Shown here: one piece after another, positions 7,665 through 32,360 of the stretch
Numbering within the stretch: position 1 is the first letter of the stretch
How the letters are laid out: each line of letters opens with the position of its first letter
Origin: a virus
Reading direction: 5' to 3' (one strand)
Virus record (IMG/VR): IMGVR_UViG_3300006201_000024
Length of the DNA: 56,911 nucleotides
Translations under genes and position numbers: made by a program
Notes under the pieces: generated by a model
Seen by the model: only the letters and a program-made list of their open reading frames with translations
Database searches by the model: none
Told to the model about the DNA's origin: nothing

Positions 7665-8213
7665 GTGAAACGACATGAATTACAGCATTTTGTAGACATA
7701 AGCATGAGCAAAACACTTGCGGATGCAGACTATCACCTGTTAGGCGATGGCATTGCTTCTTTGACAGAAGAATTCAATGCCGAAGAGGAAACCGAACAGT
7801 GGATTAATCAGGAAAACGGCACAACAGATATAAAATCTTATACTCCGTCAATCTCTGTCGAAATGCAGGATATAGACCAAGACGATACAGACCTTGTTGA
7901 TTGGTTTAACAACTTGATTGATACATTGCCAACGGGCAGCAAGGCGGTATCATCTTATGTGCGCGTTAGAGTTAAAGGTGCTGGCCCATCTTACCCGGCA
8001 GTGCAGCGCAAGTGCGCAATCTCTGTTGGCAGCACAGGAGGAGACGCAGGAGCAAACGTAACAAATTCAATTACAATTGGTGGGCGCGGTGATGGCATAA
8101 AAGGAACATTTAATGTTGAAACGGGTAAGTTTACCGCAGGCGGTGCGGAGGCATCTTCTTTGGAAGTAAAGTCCGGAACAGCAAAGTCAAGCAGCAAGAG
8201 TAATTTGAGTTAG
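7665..8213 (+). CDS. Major tail (tube) protein
   Basis: 182 aa; lies immediately upstream of the chaperone pair and the tape measure gene; acidic N-terminal half and Gly-rich C-terminus are typical of siphovirus tube proteins. Confidence 0.65.
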   Translation: MKRHELQHFVDISMSKTLADADYHLLGDGIASLTEEFNAEEETEQWINQENGTTDIKSYTPSISVEMQDIDQDDTDLVDWFNNLIDTLPTGSKAVSSYVRVRVKGAGPSYPAVQRKCAISVGSTGGDAGANVTNSITIGGRGDGIKGTFNVETGKFTAGGAEASSLEVKSGTAKSSSKSNLS

Positions 8214-8284
8214 GTATTAAGGAAACTTAATATATCGGGGTGCGTACCTTCCCATCGTGCCCCGATTTGGAAAGGATGTTAAGT

Positions 8285-8737
8285 ATGGATAGTTTAAGAA
8301 TTGACAATGGCCTGAAAAAGATTGAGGTAAATGATGCTGGGGAATATATAGAGTTTTCTATTTTTGACAGTAGCTTTTTCAGAGCATTTTTCGATTTGTT
8401 GCGGTGGTTTGATGAACAGGAAAACCGAAAAGAAATTAAGGAGATGGACGAACAAGGCTATAAAGTCGTCTCTGAGGATGGAACAGAAATCAATTATGAT
8501 GCCGCCAACAATGCTCTTGACATTCGCGATAAGATCAGCAAAGAAGCCTGTGAAAAGATTGATAATATTTTCGGAGCTGAAGCATCCAGAAAAATTTTTG
8601 AAAATGTCATACCTGATATGTATATGATCGCTGATTTCTTCGAAAAGGTTTCGCCGCTTATCGAAAAATATCAAAAAGAACGCAGTCAGACCATCAACAA
8701 GAAGTATAGCAAAAGCAGAAAAGGCGCAAAAAGTTGA
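8285..8737 (+). CDS. Tail assembly chaperone (G-like)
   Basis: Position; acidic 150-aa protein; ends in GCAAAAAGTTGA with the next ORF in the -1 frame. Confidence 0.55.
   Translation: MDSLRIDNGLKKIEVNDAGEYIEFSIFDSSFFRAFFDLLRWFDEQENRKEIKEMDEQGYKVVSEDGTEINYDAANNALDIRDKISKEACEKIDNIFGAEASRKIFENVIPDMYMIADFFEKVSPLIEKYQKERSQTINKKYSKSRKGAKS
8726..8737 (+). promoter_or_regulatory. Candidate -1 translational frameshift site (G/GT-type)
   Basis: GCA AAA AGT TGA; the downstream ORF (8734..) is in the -1 frame; the A5 run is only a near-slippery site. Confidence 0.3.
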
Positions 8738-9321
8738 TGTTTAACGTCATGCTTGACAAGCTGCCGGAGAAATACAAGGGCTATCCCATCAACAGCGATT
8801 TCCGCATAGGAATACAGATGTTTCAGATCATGAACGACTCTGAACTATCTGAAATGGAGCAGATGTATAAGGCTTGCGAATTGCTGTTTGATGTGGATGA
8901 TGCGGATCAGTTTCCAGATATGAAAACCATGCAAGATGGAATCCAATGGTTTTTGTCTGGATGGTATACAGATAATCCGGTAAATGATGAAAAAAAGGAT
9001 CATAAAGACATGGACTATGATGTAGACCAATGGCGCATATTTTCTGCTTTCCTGACGCAGTTTGGAATCAACCTAAATACGGTTGATATGCATTTTTGGG
9101 TATTCATGGGGCTGTTATCTACGCTAGAAGAATGTGCTTTTACTCGGATTGTGGATATACGCACAAAGAAAATAGATCCTAAAATGAAACCATCTGACAA
9201 AGCAGAGCTTAGAAAGGTGAAAGAACGTTATGCACTGGAACGGGTGGAGGAAGAAATGACACTGCAGGAAAAAGCAGATTATGATGCATTTATGAAGTAT
9301 GCAAAGAAAGGAAAGAAATGA
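8734..9321 (+). CDS. Gp15-like tail assembly protein (T-like part)
   Basis: MFNVMLDKLPEKYKGYPINSDFRIGIQ resembles the Phage_Gp15 family; -1 frame relative to the upstream chaperone. Confidence 0.55.
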   Translation: MMFNVMLDKLPEKYKGYPINSDFRIGIQMFQIMNDSELSEMEQMYKACELLFDVDDADQFPDMKTMQDGIQWFLSGWYTDNPVNDEKKDHKDMDYDVDQWRIFSAFLTQFGINLNTVDMHFWVFMGLLSTLEECAFTRIVDIRTKKIDPKMKPSDKAELRKVKERYALERVEEEMTLQEKADYDAFMKYAKKGKK

Positions 9322-9455
9322 CAGACAAAGAAATCGGCAAGACCGCCCGGGAGATTGCGGAGCGTGGCAATACTGCGGAGGTCAAGCGAAATAAGGACGG
9401 GATTTTGATTCTGGAAGTTGGAAGGAAGATTGTGAAAGCAGAGAAAGGGCAGTAG
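9318..9455 (+). CDS. Hypothetical small protein (45 aa)
   Basis: ATGA start/stop overlap with the upstream gene; below the track cutoff. Confidence 0.4.
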   Translation: MTDKEIGKTAREIAERGNTAEVKRNKDGILILEVGRKIVKAEKGQ

Positions 9456-9473
9456 AAATACTGCTCTTTTAAT

Positions 9474-9508
9474 TTGGTAAAATATTTTCCTTTTCGCCAA
9501 TATATGAT
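9474..9508 (+). promoter_or_regulatory. Dispersed promoter-like motif, degenerate copy
   Basis: TTGGTAAAA (9474-9482), 20 nt, TATGAT (9503-9508). Confidence 0.35.
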
Positions 9509-9676
9509 ATAGTGTAGGTATTAGAGAGGTGGGAAATTATGTCATTCATAAGCAAAATACTGGATGCTTTCAAGATGGAAAGCACAAAATATGATTAAGT
9601 TTATGGCAATCTATTCCATTTTGCGCGGTTCTTTGGTATAATGTGGAAAACTGTAGGATTTTAGGAGGATTGGGAA

Positions 9677-10327
9677 ATGAAGAAGAAATTAGTTGCAATG
9701 TTGTTGTTGGCGGTGCTGTCTGTTAGTTCTGTGGCATGTGGCGATAAGAGCCAGAGCGAAAGCGGTAATTCAGAACCGTCAACAGAGATTGGCAGTACGA
9801 AGCCGGAAAGCGAATCGTCTGAAAGCAGTAGTATAGGGGAAACTCCAAGTGATGCCATGGAGAAATCAGACCAGATGCCAGAAGCGAATAATACTCATAC
9901 TGTTGAAGGAATTACTATTTCAACAAACACTTTTTCGGTTGAGCCATACGAGGATAATCAAGGTGAGTATACAAAGCGTATTGTGATGGAGTTTACGATT
10001 AAAAATGAATCTGATTCAGCTTTCGGCTATGTAACTACATGGGAAGGCAGACTTAGTGATGGATATAAGCTTGAAACATGGGCAGATTTAATGAGCATGG
10101 ACTTAAAGCAAGTCCCGGCCGGAGGAGAAAAAACCGATACGGCATATTTTTTAATTGATGATAGTATTGACCCTGATGAGATAACGGCAACATATAATTT
10201 TATGGACTATGGAGAAGAATACTGGGCGGATTTCGGAAAGATTATGACTGGGGAAATGGGGCAGGATGAATATATGAGTAAATACGGAGATTTTGAGGTT
10301 TTAGAGTTTGCCGTAACTAAGGAATGA
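9677..10327 (+). CDS. Secreted lipoprotein (moron; possible surface or exclusion function)
   Basis: Signal peptide MKKKLVAMLLLAVLSVSSVAC with a lipobox Cys; Ser/Glu-rich linker; beta-rich C-terminal domain. Confidence 0.8.
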   Translation: MKKKLVAMLLLAVLSVSSVACGDKSQSESGNSEPSTEIGSTKPESESSESSSIGETPSDAMEKSDQMPEANNTHTVEGITISTNTFSVEPYEDNQGEYTKRIVMEFTIKNESDSAFGYVTTWEGRLSDGYKLETWADLMSMDLKQVPAGGEKTDTAYFLIDDSIDPDEITATYNFMDYGEEYWADFGKIMTGEMGQDEYMSKYGDFEVLEFAVTKE

Positions 10328-10350
10328 ATGAAACTGAATATTGAGAGAAA

Positions 10351-10384
10351 AAGGCAGAGAATAAAAATTTTCTGCCTTTTTTAA
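10351..10384 (+). terminator. Rho-independent terminator
   Basis: AAGGCAGA/TCTGCCTT 8-bp stem followed by a T-run. Confidence 0.8.
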
Positions 10385-10393
10385 TTTTGGGTA

Positions 10394-10437
10394 TTGACTT
10401 ATGCGTACTCATATGTTAATATTTATGCGTACTCATA
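10394..10437 (+). promoter_or_regulatory. Promoter with duplicated quasi-palindromic operator
   Basis: TTGACT (10394-10399), 17 nt, TAATAT (10417-10422); TATGCGTACTCATA at 10400-10413 and 10424-10437. Confidence 0.65.
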
Positions 10438-10454
10438 AATAAGGAGGTGATACG

Positions 10455-10637
10455 GTGTCGCCTAGAACGGGCAGACCACCCTTGCAAAGCACTTCTAGGA
10501 ATGAACATTTGAGTATTAGGCTGACAAAACAGGAAAAAGAAGAAATAAATAATTGTTCTGAAAAACTTGGAATGTCAAGAACTGATACAATAATGAAAGG
10601 AATAGGGCTTGTAAGGAAAGAAATTGAAAAAGAGTAG
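10455..10637 (+). CDS. RHH/MobC-like small regulator
   Basis: GTG start after AGGAGGTG; GRPPL....LSIRLTKQEKEEI pattern. Confidence 0.55.
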   Translation: MSPRTGRPPLQSTSRNEHLSIRLTKQEKEEINNCSEKLGMSRTDTIMKGIGLVRKEIEKE

Positions 10638-10754
10638 CCGCTTAACTTTGGCGAGTGTCGGCTACTCAATACACCAATCCCATAAGAGATTGATAAAATC
10701 ATTATATCAGCCTCTTATGGGAAAATCAACATATTTTTCATAGGAGGTATTATT

Positions 10755-11261
10755 ATGTCTAAAATCGGACAGGTTCTTACATCTATTGAGGTAGCGCAAA
10801 TGGTAGGCAAGGAGCATAAAGGATTGCTTCGAGATATTCGTAGATATTGTGAGCAGTTAGGAGAGAGCAAGATTGCGCTTACCGATTTCTTTTCAGAATC
10901 CACATATACAACGGCACAGAATAAGGCAATGCCATGCTACCTTGTCACAAAGAAAGGCTGCGAGTTTATCGCCCACAAGCTGACAGGGCAGAAAGGGACG
11001 GAGTTTACAGCACGGTACATCAATCGTTTTCACGAGATGGAGCATGAACTGATGACTTCCAATCCCTCTGAAATCCCCTTAGGCGAACTTGCAAGCTACC
11101 TAAAAATCATGGACAGGATAGCGCACCGCCAGAACCTCTCCCCGCACAGGATTGCGGCGAACTTCAAAAAGGTGTCGGAGCAGTTCGGGGTGGAGCTGAC
11201 AGAGGATTTTGTAAAGGTGCCGGAGTATGAGCAGATGTCATTTGAATTGGCTAATAAATAG
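10755..11261 (+). CDS. Rha family phage regulatory protein
   Basis: LTSIEVAQMVGKEHKGLLRDIRRY....YLVTKKGCEFIAHKLTG matches the Phage_pRha pattern. Confidence 0.85.
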   Translation: MSKIGQVLTSIEVAQMVGKEHKGLLRDIRRYCEQLGESKIALTDFFSESTYTTAQNKAMPCYLVTKKGCEFIAHKLTGQKGTEFTARYINRFHEMEHELMTSNPSEIPLGELASYLKIMDRIAHRQNLSPHRIAANFKKVSEQFGVELTEDFVKVPEYEQMSFELANK

Positions 11262-11275
11262 GAGGATGATTAAAC

Positions 11276-11392
11276 ATGAACTATAAATACATGATCGTTA
11301 GGCTTCTTGGCAGAATTAACAATGAAAGATTTTTGAAAGCTATCTATATATCGGTACGAGATTATGTGAAGGAAAGCGAGGATGTGGGATGA
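11276..11392 (+). CDS. Hypothetical small protein (38 aa), paralog of 27325..27489
   Basis: SD GGAGGA; ERFLKAIYISVRDYVKE compared with QRFLKAIYISMSDYLKE. Confidence 0.45.
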   Translation: MNYKYMIVRLLGRINNERFLKAIYISVRDYVKESEDVG

Positions 11393-11535
11393 GAGAAGTA
11401 TACATAGAAAGAACTATTGAGATAATACATCAGCTTGATACCGAACGGCTGAAAAAGGTTTATACAGTAGCAAAGACGCTTTTGGATTTTTTCAAAGAGA
11501 AAGGTGGTGCGGCATGGATGATGTTAATGAGGTAA
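11389..11535 (+). CDS. Hypothetical small protein (48 aa)
   Basis: ATGA overlap with the upstream ORF; helical. Confidence 0.35.
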   Translation: MREVYIERTIEIIHQLDTERLKKVYTVAKTLLDFFKEKGGAAWMMLMR

Positions 11536-11681
11536 TCATAAGGGGCCGGGTAAACCGGGAGCCTATGAGTTTTGAACGGATGAAATTCCTTTGCTACTTT
11601 GTGGCCGGGATAATTGCGGAAGTTTTGGGTTTTGCTCTTGGATTTGTAATTGTTTTGTCGATGGCAGGAGTTTTTAAGTGA
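11514..11681 (+). CDS. Hypothetical small membrane protein (55 aa)
   Basis: TM segment FLCYFVAGIIAEVLGFALGFVIVLSMAG. Confidence 0.4.
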   Translation: MDDVNEVIIRGRVNREPMSFERMKFLCYFVAGIIAEVLGFALGFVIVLSMAGVFK

Positions 11682-11689
11682 ACATTAAT

Positions 11690-11722
11690 TTGGTACAACT
11701 ATTATCCTAAATATGGTATAAT
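11690..11722 (+). promoter_or_regulatory. Dispersed phage promoter-like motif, copy 3
   Basis: TTGGTACAA (11690-11698), 18 nt, TGGTATAAT (-10 at 11717-11722). Confidence 0.6.
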
Positions 11723-11776
11723 ATATATAACTAAATCAGTGCGCCCTATGAATTGGCATAGGGGAAGGACTAAAAG

Positions 11777-11817
11777 GTGTCATGGATGCGTGTAATGCGC
11801 GTCTGTGGCACTTTTTT
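11777..11817 (+). terminator. Intrinsic terminator/attenuator in the tape-measure leader
   Basis: 14-bp stem 11777-11790/11798-11811 (10 Watson-Crick pairs, 4 G-U), 7-nt loop, then T6; ends 18 nt before ATG11835. Confidence 0.65.
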
Positions 11818-11834
11818 ATTTTACGGGTGGTTTT

Positions 11835-14800
11835 ATGGCGCAGTATGACGGAAGTATAAGAATAAATACAGCAATAGACCAAAGAGGATTTGAACGTGGA
11901 TCTAGAGGTTTGATTCAGGGCATGACACGCCTTGGGAATAGCCTAAGAGGCATGGTCAGTTCGCTTGGCTTTGGGCTTGGAATCGCTGGGCTTGTTGCGC
12001 TTGGAAAGCAGGCGATTGATACCGCAAGCGACATTCAAGAGGTTCAAAATGTTGTTGATACGGCTTTCGGCAGCATGTCCTATAAGATGGAAGAGTTTGC
12101 AAGTACATCCGTAAAGCAGTTTGGAATATCGCAGCTGTCGGCAAAACAGCTCGGCTCTACATTTATGTCCATGGGTGCATCCATGCTTGACAGTGCAGAA
12201 AACGCAAGCAACATGGCTATAAACCTGACAGCCCGTGCCGCTGATATGTCGAGCTTTTACAATAAAAGCATAGAGGAGACTTCTACCGCCTTAAAGTCTA
12301 TCTACACAGGAGAAACGGAAAGCCTAAAAGAATATGGTGTCGTAATGACGCAAGTAAACCTAGAAGAGTTTGCCAGACAGCAGGGCATCAATAAGAGCAT
12401 ACAGGCTATGACGCAATCCGAGAAGGTAATGCTGAATTACCAATATGTTATGCAGCAGACAAGCCTTGCAGCCGGAGATTTCGCAAAAACCTCTGACAGT
12501 TGGGCAAACCAGACGAGGATTCTGTCAGAGCAGTTTAAGGAGCTTGCGTCAGTTATCGGCGGCGGACTAATTGCGGCTTTGACTCCTGTTGTCAAGTTCC
12601 TCAACACGATTTTGACGATGGCAATTGCAGTTGCAAAACAAATAGGTGCATTGCTTGGGAAATTGTTTGGAATTTCCATGCCTATAGCCAGTGCGGCAAA
12701 AGGGGCATCTGATATTGCAACAGGAATATCGAATGTAGCGGATAACGCAGATTCAGCCGCGGGAAGCGCAGGAAATTTAAAAAAAGGTCTGGATAGCGCA
12801 GGAAAGGCAGCAAAAAAAGCAGGGGATGCAGCGAAAAGATCACTCGCGCCGTTTGATAAACTGACCGTGTTATCGAAAGAAGCATCTGGCGCAGGAAGCG
12901 GCGGTAGCGGCGGAGGAGGTTCTGGCGGCGGTGGTGGTGGCGCAGGCGGCGGTGGTGGATTCCAAATGCCGCAAGTTGAGATGAAAGAAGAGACGCAAGA
13001 AGCCGGAGAATTTAGCGGTGCTCTTGAAGGAATTTTAGACAGGCTCAAAGAATTAAAAGATTTGTTCGTAGCCGGATTTTGGGATGGTCTTGGAGACTAC
13101 AAGCCTATACTTGACGATCTAAAGAGAGACCTAGAATCTATCTGGAATACCTTGAAGGAAATATTTACAGACCCAGAAGTGGTTGGAGCGTCTAATAGGT
13201 TTTTTGACTCTCTTGCATTTGCATCCGGTCAGGTCGTAGGCTCCATGGCAAGCATCGGACTTACAATAGCATCCAACCTTATAGGCGGAATGGAAAAATA
13301 TCTTACCCAAAACGCTGATAGGATAAAAAAATATATTATCGGCATGTTTGATGTTGGTTCGGATATAGTCTCCATAATCGGAAACACCGCAGCAGATTTG
13401 GCAGATATTTTTTCAGTTTTTGCCAGCGATACTGCGCAGCAGATCACCGGTAATATCATTGGCATATTTGCAGAAGTAGGCATGATGGTATCCGAAACCG
13501 CACTAAAACTAGGCCGAGACATCCTAAATATGATAACCAAGCCGATCATCGAAAACAAAAACAAGATAAAGACGGCGATAGAAGGAACATTAGAAGCGAT
13601 CGAACCATTTACAAGTGGACTGCTAACTGCCGTTCAGACGATTAGGGATGCGGTTGCGACAGTATACGATGAGCATTTAAAGCCGTTGTTTGATTCGATT
13701 GCAGAAGGGCTATCTATAGTTTTGGGAAAGCTATTGGATGGATACAACACATACATAGTTCCGGTATTGCAGGGACTTGGCGATCGGTTCAAGGAAATAA
13801 TGGAAGGGCCGTTCGGAGATACAGTTGATAAAATCGTTGAATTTGTTGGAAAATTAATAGACGCTTTCAGATTGTTGTGGGAAAACGTGTTGGTTCCTTT
13901 GTTTTCCTGGATTGTAAGTAATATTATGCCTGTCCTAGCCCCAATAGTTGAACTCATAGGCGAAATATTATTAAACAAACTCGAAACCATAATTAAAGTT
14001 ATTGGAGATATAGCAGATGCATTAAGCGGGGTTATAGATTTTGTTGTCGGAGTATTTACCGGAGACTGGGAAAAGGCTTGGAATGGAATAGAGCAGATAT
14101 TCTCTGGCGTATGGAATGCTATTAAAGACATAGTTACTGGGAAATGGGAAGAAATAAAAACCTATATAACAGGTGCACTCGAAATTATTTCATCTATCAT
14201 ATCCGCTGCTTGGGACGGAATAACAACCGCTGCATCTGTAGCGTGGGATTTTTTTACAAGCATCATATCTGGATTATGGAATGCCCTTCCTGATATTGCA
14301 AGCGAAGCGTTTGAAGCTATCGGAAATGCTATTTCTATCGTATGGGACGATATAACAAATTTCACGTCTGATGCTTGGGAATGGATAGCAAATACTGTGT
14401 CGGGCGTGTGGGATGGATTATCTACTACGGCAAGCGATGTTTTCAATGGAATAAAAGAATTTGTTTCAAAAGCATGGGAAAGCGCAAAGAAATTAAGTTC
14501 TGATTTATGGGGACAAATTTATAAAACCGTTGGTGATGTGTGGGGCAATTTAAAAAAGAGCGCGGGAGAAGTGTTTCCGGCTGTTTGGGGAAAGATCAAA
14601 ACTGCATGGAATGACGCATGGTCAAAAACAAAAAGCGTCTGGACGAACGTTTCTACCAAGGTTAATAATGTATGGAATGGATTCAAAACAAAGGTATCTT
14701 CCATATTCCCTGGCATCAAACAAACCATTATTGATGCGTGGAACGGCATTAAGACAAGTACCACAAACATCTGGAACGGAATAAAAAATGCAGTAAAATC

Positions 14801-15242
14801 CCCGATCAATGCAATTATTGGATTTCTCAATACTTTAATCAGCGGAATATCGTCTGCGATTAATGGCTTGACTAGCATGTTAAATAATCTAAGTATAGAC
14901 ATACCAGACTGGGTTCCGGGCGTTGGGGGAAATTCCCTTGGATTCAAAATACCAAAGGTAAACGCTGCAAAGATACCATACCTTGCATCCGGCGCAGTAA
15001 TCCGCGGCGGAGACCCATTCATGGCGGTGCTGGGCGATCAGCCAAGGGGACAGACTAACATAGAAACACCATTGCCTACGATGGTAAATGCTTTTAAACA
15101 GGCAATAGCAGAAAGTGGAATGTATGGCGGTGGTGAATACACATTTGTTGCACAGCTTGACGGGAAAACGATTTTTAAAGAGACTGTTAAGCAAGACAGG
15201 ATGTTCAGCGGTAGAACTGGACATAGCGCGTTCGCACATTAG
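11835..15242 (+). CDS. Tail tape measure protein
   Basis: 1135 aa; TM-like segments, a poly-Gly run, and a long C-terminal array of W-x(10) repeats (VWNAIKDIVTGKWEEIK...). Confidence 0.9.
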   Translation: MAQYDGSIRINTAIDQRGFERGSRGLIQGMTRLGNSLRGMVSSLGFGLGIAGLVALGKQAIDTASDIQEVQNVVDTAFGSMSYKMEEFASTSVKQFGISQLSAKQLGSTFMSMGASMLDSAENASNMAINLTARAADMSSFYNKSIEETSTALKSIYTGETESLKEYGVVMTQVNLEEFARQQGINKSIQAMTQSEKVMLNYQYVMQQTSLAAGDFAKTSDSWANQTRILSEQFKELASVIGGGLIAALTPVVKFLNTILTMAIAVAKQIGALLGKLFGISMPIASAAKGASDIATGISNVADNADSAAGSAGNLKKGLDSAGKAAKKAGDAAKRSLAPFDKLTVLSKEASGAGSGGSGGGGSGGGGGGAGGGGGFQMPQVEMKEETQEAGEFSGALEGILDRLKELKDLFVAGFWDGLGDYKPILDDLKRDLESIWNTLKEIFTDPEVVGASNRFFDSLAFASGQVVGSMASIGLTIASNLIGGMEKYLTQNADRIKKYIIGMFDVGSDIVSIIGNTAADLADIFSVFASDTAQQITGNIIGIFAEVGMMVSETALKLGRDILNMITKPIIENKNKIKTAIEGTLEAIEPFTSGLLTAVQTIRDAVATVYDEHLKPLFDSIAEGLSIVLGKLLDGYNTYIVPVLQGLGDRFKEIMEGPFGDTVDKIVEFVGKLIDAFRLLWENVLVPLFSWIVSNIMPVLAPIVELIGEILLNKLETIIKVIGDIADALSGVIDFVVGVFTGDWEKAWNGIEQIFSGVWNAIKDIVTGKWEEIKTYITGALEIISSIISAAWDGITTAASVAWDFFTSIISGLWNALPDIASEAFEAIGNAISIVWDDITNFTSDAWEWIANTVSGVWDGLSTTASDVFNGIKEFVSKAWESAKKLSSDLWGQIYKTVGDVWGNLKKSAGEVFPAVWGKIKTAWNDAWSKTKSVWTNVSTKVNNVWNGFKTKVSSIFPGIKQTIIDAWNGIKTSTTNIWNGIKNAVKSPINAIIGFLNTLISGISSAINGLTSMLNNLSIDIPDWVPGVGGNSLGFKIPKVNAAKIPYLASGAVIRGGDPFMAVLGDQPRGQTNIETPLPTMVNAFKQAIAESGMYGGGEYTFVAQLDGKTIFKETVKQDRMFSGRTGHSAFAH

Positions 15243-25426: not shown

Positions 25427-25663
25427 ATGGACAATAAGAAAATCGACTGGAAAAGAAAACTGACAAGCCGCAAGCTGTGGGTATCCGTATGCAGCTTCGT
25501 GTCGCTGCTTTCCATGGCGGCAGGAGCAGCAGAAAGCGAGGCGGCGCAGCTTGCATCCATCATCATGGCAGGAGCCACAGTAATCGGCTATGTTGTGGGG
25601 GAGGGACTGGCAGATGCTGCAGGGGAGAAAAGACTGGATCAGGATATGGATAAAAGGGAGTAG
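25427..25663 (+). CDS. Holin (two TM segments)
   Basis: 78 aa; KLTSRKLWVSVCSFVSLLSMAAG and LASIIMAGATVIGYVVG; charged C-terminus; directly upstream of the endolysin. Confidence 0.7.
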   Translation: MDNKKIDWKRKLTSRKLWVSVCSFVSLLSMAAGAAESEAAQLASIIMAGATVIGYVVGEGLADAAGEKRLDQDMDKRE

Positions 25664-25668
25664 AGAAC

Positions 25669-26463
25669 ATGGGATATGTATTTAAGACAGAACTTGCACA
25701 CAGGAGCAATTTTGGCAGCACAAGGGCATACTCGGCAATAAAATATATTGTCATGCATTACACTGCCAATGATGGGGACAGGGCCGAAAACAACGCAAAA
25801 TATTTTCAATCTTCGCATAAGCCTGCGACGTCTGCGCATTATTTTGTAGATAATGATGTGGTTGTTCAGTCCGTGCCGGATAATTTTGTTGCATACGCAG
25901 TAGGAGGCAAAAAATATACAGACTGCGCAGCGACAGGAGGCGGAACGCTGTATGGGAAAGTCACAAACGCCAACAGCATCAGCATTGAGATGTGCGACAC
26001 GCAGCGCGACGGGAAATATCAGGCAACAGAGCAGACAATGTCAAATGCGGCAGAACTATGCCGCAGGCTGATGGACAAGTACGGCGTAGGCATTGACCAT
26101 GTCGTGCGGCATTTTGACGTAAACGGCAAGCATTGCCCGGCGTACTTTATGGACAGCGCAGCGTGGGAAAGGTTTAAGGACAGGCTGCGCACCTGCCAGT
26201 TTGAGGCGGGAAAAGTATATACCACGACAAGATCCTGTTATCTAAGGCGCAGCGCGGGCGCAAAAGATAATAAGGTAAAGCATAAAACGCTGCCGGATTC
26301 AGTCAAAAAGAAATGCCGGAATAAGCTTGGATGGGCAGTATTGAAAAAGAACAGGGCATTCCGGCTTGTCAGATGTGCGTACTCCGGCGGGAATATATGG
26401 GGAAAGATCAAAACGGGGTACTGGGTTCCTCTGATCTACAAGGGAGAAACGAGGGCGAAGTGA
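25669..26463 (+). CDS. Endolysin: N-acetylmuramoyl-L-alanine amidase (Amidase_2/PGRP) with an SH3-like C-terminal domain
   Basis: IKYIVMHYTAN..SAHYFVD...SISIEMC...HVVRHFDVNGKHCPAYF. Confidence 0.9.
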   Translation: MGYVFKTELAHRSNFGSTRAYSAIKYIVMHYTANDGDRAENNAKYFQSSHKPATSAHYFVDNDVVVQSVPDNFVAYAVGGKKYTDCAATGGGTLYGKVTNANSISIEMCDTQRDGKYQATEQTMSNAAELCRRLMDKYGVGIDHVVRHFDVNGKHCPAYFMDSAAWERFKDRLRTCQFEAGKVYTTTRSCYLRRSAGAKDNKVKHKTLPDSVKKKCRNKLGWAVLKKNRAFRLVRCAYSGGNIWGKIKTGYWVPLIYKGETRAK

Positions 26464-26477
26464 ATGCGTGCGAATAT

Positions 26478-26510
26478 TTGGTACAAATTTATTTTCAAAT
26501 GATGTACAAT
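26478..26510 (+). promoter_or_regulatory. Dispersed phage promoter-like motif, copy 4
   Basis: TTGGTACAA (26478-26486), 18 nt, TGTACAAT (-10 at 26505-26510); no ORF follows before the hairpin at 26560. Confidence 0.45.
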
Positions 26511-26559
26511 ATAATTGTTCCAAATAATCCAATCATTTCACATTCCAAATCCTCTTAGA

Positions 26560-26588
26560 GCAGCCCGGTGATCGCATGGCCGGGCTGC
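26560..26588. terminator. Bidirectional hairpin terminator between convergent genes
   Basis: GCAGCCCGG/CCGGGCTGC 9-bp GC-rich stem with an 11-nt loop; no clean U-tract on either side. Confidence 0.6.
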
Positions 26589-26606
26589 GATTATGCATGT
26601 TATTTT

Positions 26607-27200
26607 TTATTTGACGCTATCTATATCTATGGAATATCCAAGGATTTCCCCAACATCTTTACAATATCCTTTTACTGTGATTTCATCTCCGGTCGTTTTC
26701 TCCATAATTATATCTTTCTGATCGTCTGAAGTTATGTAGCATTGTATATTTGCGAGAGTGATTTCATCGGTGGTTATTCCTATATACTTTCCATCGCTGT
26801 CTACATTTCCGAGTTCTCCTTTTATTTTGAGATATTTTCCCTTGTATGCATCAGATGCTTTCATTGCATTTTTTTCTAACGCGTCTATCAGATCCTGAGC
26901 TGATACAGAAATGTATTCTATTTTTTCTTCCTTTTCGTTTTCAACTGAATTATTTTCGCTTGAGCTATCTTTTCCGCCTTCGGATGTATTTGCATTTTTA
27001 GAATTTGCCGATTGACTATCATCAGAATTTCCTCCACTCGCAGCGGCAGCTCCTATTATTAAAATTACGACCACTATCAAAATCCACTTTCCGATTCCGC
27101 CCTGCTTCTTTCTGCACTGCGGGCATATCTTAGCTCCTGCCGGAATTTCGGACTTGCAATGCTTGCATACCTTGGTTCCTTCGCTTTTTGACATTTTCAT
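26607..27200 (-). CDS. Zinc-ribbon membrane protein with an OB-fold-like (tRNA_anti-like) ectodomain; lysogeny-side moron
   Basis: CKHCKSEIPAGAKICPQCRKK, TM WILIVVVILIIGAAAA, then AYKGKYLKIKGELGNVDSDG.. Confidence 0.8.
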   Translation of the reverse strand: MKMSKSEGTKVCKHCKSEIPAGAKICPQCRKKQGGIGKWILIVVVILIIGAAAASGGNSDDSQSANSKNANTSEGGKDSSSENNSVENEKEEKIEYISVSAQDLIDALEKNAMKASDAYKGKYLKIKGELGNVDSDGKYIGITTDEITLANIQCYITSDDQKDIIMEKTTGDEITVKGYCKDVGEILGYSIDIDSVK

Positions 27201-31843: not shown

Positions 31844-31847
31844 TGTG

Positions 31848-32360
31848 ATGCAGGTGCAAGTGGACACACGCGAACACGCAAAAGAATGGGAACGCATAAA
31901 AAGGCAGTTTGACACGCTAGGAGTGCAGTATTTTCGCTCGAAAATGTATGTGGCTGATTATATGTCATTAGACAATCCAAGGCTGGTAATCGACCGCAAA
32001 AAGGACTTGCAGGAGATATGCGGGAATGTCTGCCAACAGCATGAGCGTTTCAAGGCTGAGTTGCTTCGTGCAAAGGAGCAGGGGATAAAATTGGTTATCC
32101 TCTGCGAGCATGGAGCGGATATAAAAAGCTTTGAAGATGTGTACTTCTGGAGCAATCCCCGTAAGTATCAGATACGGTGGAAAACAGTCAACGGTAAGCG
32201 TGTAAAGGATGTAATTTCAGCTAAGGCGGTGGACGGGAACCAGCTTTATAAGTCGCTGTGTACGATACGTGACAGGTATAATGTTGATTTCGTTTTCTGC
32301 CGGAAAGAAGAAACGGGGCAGAAAATCATAGAAATTCTTGGAGGGCAGATAGATGAATGA
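31848..32360 (+). CDS. ERCC4-type nuclease (putative junction resolvase)
   Basis: VDTREH...YVADYM....VIDRKKDLQEI matches the ERCC4 D-x-RE/GDY/ERK blocks. Confidence 0.65.
   Translation: MQVQVDTREHAKEWERIKRQFDTLGVQYFRSKMYVADYMSLDNPRLVIDRKKDLQEICGNVCQQHERFKAELLRAKEQGIKLVILCEHGADIKSFEDVYFWSNPRKYQIRWKTVNGKRVKDVISAKAVDGNQLYKSLCTIRDRYNVDFVFCRKEETGQKIIEILGGQIDE

Follow-up and report, generated by a model that had tools for sequence, protein, structure and literature searches.

The leader that precedes the tape-measure gene (TMP) of this phage is best read as a cis-acting terminator/antiterminator attenuator, in which a factor acting on two hexaloops of the consensus AAnnGG would flip the RNA and thereby gate the block of genes from TMP to the endolysin. 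We assign to this reading a probability of about 55%, the likeliest factor being a protein of 45 amino acids, here called X. By analogy with systems already described, the layout resembles site-specific, factor-dependent antitermination of the ANTAR type. The whole stretch of DNA analyzed, hereafter referred to as the window (56,911 nt), is that of a siphovirus of Lachnospiraceae, with a phage genome of about 56.8 kb and a 70-nt repeat at each end, and related prophages were found in Lachnospiraceae genomes from mouse and human gut.

The gene order around the leader is canonical. The gene for the major tail protein (7665-8213) is followed by a chaperone-like gene (8240-8737), a Gp15-family gene (8734-9321; PF06854), and gene X (9318-9455, + strand), which encodes the 45-residue protein (MTDKEIGKTAREIAERGNTAEVKRNKDGILILEV...), a candidate for a factor acting in trans on the leader RNA. 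A terminator-like hairpin, T1 (9443-9470, + strand; -17.6 kcal/mol, z -5.5), encloses the X stop codon (TAG, 9453-9455), and just past T1 begins a cargo island of 2.2 kb (9456-11689). Located between the tail-chaperone genes and TMP, this island encodes a lipoprotein (9677-10327), an RHH protein, an Ant/Rha regulator (10755-11261), and small ORFs, and is similar to the morons of temperate phages in carrying its own promoters and terminator inside a late operon. The leader comes next, and then the Shine-Dalgarno (SD) sequence GGGTGG (11825-11830) and the TMP gene with its ATG at 11835 (11835-15242; phrog_1535, E 1.5e-148), together occupying 11825-15242 on the + strand. Every gene 3' of TMP is on the + strand as far as the holin (25427-25663) and the endolysin (25669-26463), with the tail and fibre genes in between, and TMP is thus the first gene of a 14.6-kb + strand block that ends at the endolysin and contains no further promoter of the 9-mer class described below. 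Elsewhere in the window, a tRNA was called by Rfam at 2875-2951 (44.8 bits); ARAGORN found zero tRNAs in the whole window.

The leader, on the + strand throughout, is composed of two small hairpins and an intrinsic terminator. The first hairpin, P1 (CCCTATG/CATAGGG, 11744-11750/11757-11763), has 7 bp and a hexaloop AAUUGG (11751-11756), and is connected by a 4-nt linker GAAG (11764-11767) to the second hairpin, P2 (GAC-U-AAAAGG-U-GUC, 11768-11781), the putative antiterminator, with three core base pairs and a loop AAAAGG. The terminator (11772-11817) has a stem of 20 bp (11772-11791/11797-11816), a loop GUAAU, and a tract of T6 at 11812-11817. The original prediction had placed here a promoter, the 7-bp hairpin, a strong terminator, and the TMP start codon, and all these positions were correct; the 14-bp stem it described (11777-11790/11798-11811), followed by T6, extends to 20 pairs. 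Both of the structures that it recognized in the leader are real, but P2, which overlaps the terminator, had been overlooked.

The 95-nt leader folds at -39.9 kcal/mol, compared with -21.1 +/- 2.9 kcal/mol for shuffled sequences (z -6.5, 0/200). The terminator alone folds at -26.7 kcal/mol on the + strand (z -7.2) versus -7.6 kcal/mol on the - strand, the weak fold of the latter being due to the six G-U pairs within the stem. Since the fold is this stable on the + strand alone, the terminator is a strand-specific, RNA-level structure on the TMP strand. The predicted fold shows what is expected of an intrinsic terminator, that is, a stable G+C-containing stem-loop (20 bp) followed by a U-tract (U6) on the transcribed strand, and in a generic terminator scan it ranked first within 5-20 kb. 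The interval between the T-tract and the TMP ATG is 18 nt, and because it leaves no room for a promoter, TMP transcripts must cross the terminator of -26.7 kcal/mol; the need for read-through was thus rightly foreseen.

The loop and 3' arm of P2 are the first ten nucleotides of the 5' arm of the terminator and, since the two structures share 11772-11781, the two folds are mutually exclusive. In fold prediction, the isolated 45-nt RNA of 11741-11785 forms P1 and P2, and the full leader forms P1 and the terminator. A covariance model built here, R1, gave 61.8 bits at 11738-11785; the leader of the related locus L076, from a complete Lachnospiraceae genome (CP143549.1) that also encodes X, has a score of 61.8 bits as well. 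Even with filters off, R1 found no second copy of the leader in the window (next best match, 8 bits), and its single copy stands at the head of the TMP-to-endolysin block. An 11-bp hairpin with an AAUUGG loop (GCAGGGGATAA AATTGG TTATCCTCTGC) was noticed at 32078-32105, inside the ORF 31845-32360, and may have arisen by chance; it is accompanied by neither a second hairpin nor a terminator.

Two further roles were considered for the segment and rejected. A leader peptide, starting from GUG at 11777 behind GAAGGA and running for 23 codons across the terminator, was dismissed because the frame is unconserved, meeting a stop after six codons in the related locus L015 and being in frame with TMP in L024. 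A frameshift stimulator, as suggested by a hairpin after the chaperone genes, was dismissed because a slippery site is lacking at the required distance and because the promoter and the island intervene.

Searches with the N-terminus of TMP yielded 57 loci, of which the upstream regions were sorted into three groups: group (a) with the same leader type as the window (19-21 distinct sequences); group (b) with another two-hairpin leader, consisting of a hairpin, then CGCUAACC, and then a terminator hiding the SD; and group (c) without a leader, the chaperone gene abutting TMP. At least 19 distinct related leaders share the whole layout of the window and show covariation. Among 19 leaders, compensatory changes were detected at 7 of the 7 pairs of P1 (95.7% of cells paired) and at two of the three core pairs of P2 (GAC/GUC, GGC/GCC, and AGC/GCU), the latter with zero unpaired cells; P1 and P2 taken together, 90% of cells were paired, compared with 73% in column shuffles (0/500) and 33-47% with slid partners. 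The terminator is also conserved, with five compensatory pairs in the related leaders. When the shared segment varies between GUC, GCC, and GCU, the 5' arm of P2 changes in accordance to GAC, GGC, and AGC, whereas the 3' arm of the terminator stays constant as GGCAC and accepts G-U pairs. Since the P2 5' arm tracks the shared segment while the terminator 3' arm is fixed, selection must be operating on the P2 pairing as such, and this conserved alternative pairing argues for the conditional nature of the read-through, as had been proposed. When diverse members were folded, the RNAs cut before the terminator 3' arm formed P1 and P2, and the full-length RNAs formed a terminator overlapping P2 (10 of 12).

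The loops of P1 and P2 have one and the same consensus, AAnnGG (variants AAUUGG, AACGGG, AAUAGG, and AAACGG, with U, G, A, or C at position 4), often closed by U-U or A-U, and the two hairpins are 3-4 nt apart. Leader DNA was conserved far above the adjacent TMP in L021 (about 95% versus 40% amino-acid identity). Upon scanning of viral contigs with the pattern AATTGG-N7/8-GAAGGACTA, five among the 80 loci listed were real; extra regex matches in relatives were located in coding regions and were set aside as chance.

The leader of group (b) was found in the X-less TMP relatives L001, L002, L027, L037, L042, and L055, about 100 nt 5' of the TMP start. It consists of a variable hairpin, then CGCUAACC(U/C)..AAAAAG(Y)UAYGGGC, and then a terminator, of which the 3' arm holds the SD GGAGG directly 5' of the ATG. 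In L037, this leader stands behind a 9-mer promoter, and in L032, the CGCUAACC hairpin is present alone, the terminator being gone. Within the window, the core of the CGCUAACC-type leader has a look-alike at 55347-55380 (CGCTAACCTG..CAG, then the SD AAGGGAGGG and the start of the gene 55381-55926), located at the 3' end of the ORF 54916-55377.

The promoter of the leader is composed of the 9-mer TTGGTACAA (11690-11698, + strand), the -35-region box of a phage-specific promoter class, and an extended -10 box TGgTATAAT (11714-11722, + strand; read from the sequence), with a predicted transcription start near 11729. The exact TTGGTACAA occurs in six copies in the window, all on the + strand and all intergenic, compared with an expectation of 0.69 (0/100 shuffles), and every copy is followed 18-19 nt downstream by (G)TAnAAT. 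In relatives, the boxes and their spacing are constant and the spacer sequence is variable, as should be the case for a true promoter. Within host chromosomes of 4-5 Mb, TGGTACAA-N18/19-TAnAAT was detected in prophage DNA only: G001 has five occurrences in 34 kb and G003 has six in 35 kb, with zero elsewhere in both chromosomes. This confinement to prophages indicates that the 9-mer marks a phage-specific promoter class and is not a feature of the leader itself, and some phage factor probably acts at such promoters. X was rejected as this factor, because prophages without X and without the X-type leader (G002 and G003) bear the same promoter class.

The six 9-mer promoters are located at 805, 1664, 11690, 26478, 37897, and 49872, and fall into two spacer types, C-rich (CCCCGCC..AAnCTG; 1664, 37897, and 49872) and A/T-rich (805, 11690, and 26478), both of which were also observed in sister prophages. 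The promoter at 26478 (26478-26600) has no ORF behind it and points at a 10-bp G+C-rich hairpin (about 26560-26589); it converges on a Sie-like gene on the - strand (26607-27200), and the RNA that it may drive would be antisense or 3'-overlapping. A seventh copy, ATGGTACAA at 54013 with GAAAAT 19 nt further on, drives the Rfam int-alpA RNA (RF02996, 39.7 bits; 54013-54116), which is situated just 5' of, and slightly overlaps, a PAPS-reductase-like gene (54094-54909).

The original prediction had likened this arrangement to the lambda PR'/tR' region and regarded the 9-mer as a possible loading site of an antitermination factor. Lambda Q is loaded on DNA at the single late promoter and acts processively. 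With respect to layout, the likeness to PR'-qut-tR' holds, as a promoter is closely followed by a strong terminator before the late genes and a short terminated RNA is the default product. A mechanism of the Q type is not supported, since the RNA structure is conserved and covarying: the conserved determinants here are RNA hairpins competing locally with one terminator. The 9-mer could not be upheld as a loading site, being a general promoter signature common to six promoters, most of which lack a leader terminator, and about half of the group (a) leaders lack both the promoter and the 9-mer, starting right at the stop codon of the preceding gene or overlapping it; this gene is in every case an X homologue. 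The promoter is thus dispensable in many relatives, unlike lambda PR'. The two candidate factors named in the prediction have no link to the element, 10755-11261 being an Ant/Rha-type cargo gene and 51881-52153 belonging to no family.

If a phage factor nevertheless engaged RNA polymerase at the 9-mer promoters, in a lambda Q-like or other processive manner, and made it ignore terminators, the restriction of the promoter class to prophage DNA in the 4-5 Mb host genomes and the cargo terminators within the late operons would be accounted for. Phages with processive antitermination, such as those with lambdoid morons, typically carry cargo terminators in their late operons. Such a promoter-loaded mechanism, however, leaves the conserved P1/P2 structure unexplained, has no place for the many leaders without promoter and 9-mer, and finds no Q-like family in Pfam or PHROG scans of about 55 proteins of the window; it is considered very unlikely. 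Conservation and covariation of P1, P2, and the terminator, together with the mutual exclusion of P2 and the terminator, are instead the signature of a local RNA-binding antiterminator.

The sensitive Rfam scan of 11650-11860 gave a match of the leader to gut-2 (RF02990) of 29.5 bits at 11740-11787 (E 9.6e-5 in the 211-nt search), which is below the gathering cut-off of 39.8 bits; the sister leader L021 gave 35.7 bits. At the gathering threshold, the whole window showed just the tRNA-like match and int-alpA, and gut-2 was absent. Other weak matches of the leader (RT-6 with 18.8 bits, mir-7445, PK-SPCSV, and HIV SL4) were discarded as chance. The gut-2 motif is an orphan from human-gut metagenomes (Weinberg et al. 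2017, PMC5737381). As in the leader, it has a P1 with an AAUUGG loop, a GAAGG linker rich in purine, and a small second hairpin with a like loop, and the two could be aligned over all 48 model positions; they differ in P2, which is GGCC/GGCC with an AAUUGG loop in gut-2 and GAC/GUC with AAAAGG in the leader. The neighbourhood of gut-2 is also that of the window, because the above-cut-off match in L096 (54.7 bits) and four sub-threshold matches are all located directly after an X homologue and overlap a terminator. Judged from sequence, the P1-P2 unit is a divergent relative of gut-2. Neither terminator overlap, nor a partner protein, nor a location at late-operon junctions is mentioned in the description of gut-2 that was consulted.

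Rfam files gut-2 as 'Gene; sRNA', and the leader might accordingly be a moron for a trans-acting small RNA, of which the product of about 88 nt acts elsewhere, for example as a decoy titrating X, or by acting on targets in the host. The presence of a promoter and a terminator of its own fits such a gene, as does the association of another 9-mer-type promoter of the window with a known orphan RNA, int-alpA. About half of the members, however, have no promoter of their own and are placed between two co-oriented genes, and the element is always immediately 5' of an SD and start codon; in the terminated RNA, moreover, the P2 loop is buried within the terminator stem, and thus the dual-loop fold would not be displayed. 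An sRNA gene is therefore regarded as quite unlikely.

The proposed leader switch has parallels among RNA-binding antiterminators. In the BglG/SacY/LicT systems, protein binding stabilizes an RNA hairpin (RAT) that overlaps a terminator, as is proposed for P2. The RAT, however, consists of one imperfect hairpin (about 29 nt), to which a PTS-controlled CAT domain binds, and neither such a protein nor such an RNA sequence is present here. The targets of the ANTAR proteins EutV, NasR, and AmiR are composed of two small hexaloop hairpins with a shared loop consensus, of which the second overlaps the 5' half of an intrinsic terminator, and a dimeric protein bound to both loops leads to antitermination (Ramesh et al. 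2012, PMC3369931). The leader likewise has tandem hexaloop hairpins, the second one overlapping an intrinsic terminator, but its loops carry A1-A2-n-n-G5-G6 instead of A1/G4, its P1 has 7 bp instead of 3, and its linker is 3-4 nt instead of 5-12 nt. The ANTAR protein has a coiled-coil/three-helix domain, whereas X is predicted to form one helix and a beta-hairpin within 45 residues. No ANTAR domain (PF03861) was detected in four related phage records; one ANTAR protein was found in the host chromosome of a sister prophage. The leader is therefore not an ANTAR target in the strict sense. Two like-looped hairpins at a distance of 3-4 nt are, nevertheless, what a dimeric RNA-binding protein would recognize, as for the ANTAR targets (PMC3369931).

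The best candidate for such a protein is X. It showed no family in Pfam and PHROGs, and its own family, annotated throughout as hypothetical, numbers 304 representatives when clustered at 50% identity and has 1728 clusters at 90%. Its predicted structure (AF2, pLDDT 85) is one helix plus a beta-hairpin, for which a Foldseek search of PDB gave no similar known RNA-binding fold (best E 0.2); against viral predicted folds, the matches were solely with uncharacterised phage proteins. Among the sampled TMP relatives, X was present in every locus with a group (a) leader and in none with group (b) or (c), the X-less loci including the closest TMP relatives (87% and 80% TMP identity). X is usually located directly upstream of the leader; in the window, the 2.2-kb cargo island separates the two. 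In L015, L028, L031, and L076, hairpin T1 is again found after X and is followed next by the promoter and the leader, the island being absent.

Searches starting from the RNA gave the same result. Among 151 Lachnospiraceae genomes, the gut-2 model found five matches and R1 found three, all of them directly behind an X homologue and overlapping a terminator. Conversely, 11 of the 13 X-bearing genomes had an R1 match (one each, once two), located on the strand of X and 0-10 kb downstream of it, compared with 3 of the 151 random family members. When other genes had been inserted behind X, searching the whole genome gave exactly one R1 match, 2-10 kb further on, and its strand and coordinate range were those expected from the contig of X. 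The two X-bearing genomes without the RNA are G165, in which no match was found, and L070, which is a deletion. In L070 (about 1640-1830), X is kept and the leader has been lost by a deletion that leaves the first half of P1 (GGCTCATG) fused to the TMP SD (GGGGTGG); this prophage expresses, or fails to express, TMP without the switch.

Divergent X homologues of about 40% identity are located, in other phages, at another junction, from the minor capsid gene (PF06152) to the scaffold and major capsid genes. Behind these follow at once a P1 (AAUAGG), a linker, a P2 (AAUAGG), and an overlapping terminator, with gut-2 scores of 25-31 bits. Since X and the RNA are neighbours and hence genetically linked, their co-occurrence is inflated, but conservation of the pair across insertions of 0.3-10 kb and at two junctions argues against mere hitch-hiking. 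As judged from the sequences compared, the conserved unit is X plus the dual-hairpin RNA plus the terminator, split in the window by the cargo island. Further orphan motifs of Rfam were also observed next to this module, RAGATH-35 (88.8 bits) just upstream of X at L096 1212-1297 and GP20-b (57.5 bits) between the module terminator and the scaffold gene at L216 2245-2304.

Between the X stop codon and P1 lies a hot spot for cargo insertion. The islands present there, in the window (9456-11689) and in L068, L072-L075, L078, L079, L082, and L088, measure 0.3 to about 10 kb and differ in content (DUF4417-like genes, Ant/Rha, lipoprotein, and others). The leader does not count as cargo; it belongs to the conserved X-RNA-terminator module, with or without an island. 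The hot spot would fit a factor-free function, in which a leaky, constitutive terminator keeps a low ratio of TMP to tail-tube protein, ends transcripts from upstream and from the cargo, and marks the boundary for cargo recombination. TMP is required in few copies in siphovirus tails, and the far better conservation of leader DNA than of the adjacent TMP in L021 is as expected at a module junction. Such an attenuator or insulator is unlikely, because it leaves unexplained the covarying P2 in competition with the terminator, the matching loops, and the strict co-occurrence of X at two junctions, and because a 20-bp stem with U6 looks efficient and not leaky.

In many members, the X stop codon lies inside P1, and a cis effect of X translation, or a role as 3'-UTR, is possible. 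The fold could then be set by ribosomes terminating at this codon, or the RNA could act alone as antiterminator in the manner of HK022 put. The put element has two promoter-proximal stem-loops, as are also found here before the terminator. For a put-like element, however, an adjacent conserved terminator would be pointless, and translation cannot act in cis in the window and at least 10 relatives, where X is 0.3-10 kb away from the leader and behind its own terminator; in addition, X is predicted to be a conserved folded protein and not a leader peptide. Both versions are highly improbable.

Under the preferred reading, a factor-dependent switch on the leader RNA, RNA polymerase would start at the phage-specific promoter (11690-11722) or arrive from the upstream cargo island, and would synthesize P1, then P2, and then the remainder of the very stable terminator. 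Unaided, the terminator would win: transcripts would end near 11817, those begun at the local promoter being about 88 nt long, and the TMP-to-endolysin block would be silent. A factor recognizing both AAnnGG hexaloops would clamp the dual hairpin and hold the base of the terminator open, allowing the polymerase to enter TMP. Against the switch counts that P2 has only three core pairs. The likeliest factor would be a dimer of X (9318-9455); a host factor, such as the ANTAR protein of the sister prophage's host, is a possible alternative. Because gene X closes the late unit that comes before, the genes for distal tail and lysis would be turned on only once the head and tail-tube unit has been expressed, with a delay or threshold between the two sets of genes, and the switch probably decides the timing of tail and lysis gene transcription. 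The terminator may in addition insulate the late genes from transcription of the cargo island in the lysogen.

A broader and more tentative proposal is that X is the founder of a novel family of antiterminators, minimal in size (about 45 aa), which bind RNA in a sequence-specific manner and target the gut-2 fold, and that the pair may serve as a portable late-operon gate of gut Lachnospiraceae phages (chaperone to TMP, and minor capsid to scaffold), which times tail and lysis genes and makes the junction a safe landing site for cargo. If this is true, an orphan Rfam motif would gain a function and a protein partner, and a family of very small RNA-binding regulators, with more than 1,700 sequence clusters that are all hypothetical at present, would join the few site-specific antiterminators. 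The compact system, a 45-nt RNA and a 45-aa protein, might possibly be of use as an orthogonal transcription switch. For the phages themselves, it would explain how the distal tail and lysis genes are kept off downstream of cargo islands that the lysogen transcribes, and yet are turned on late in infection.
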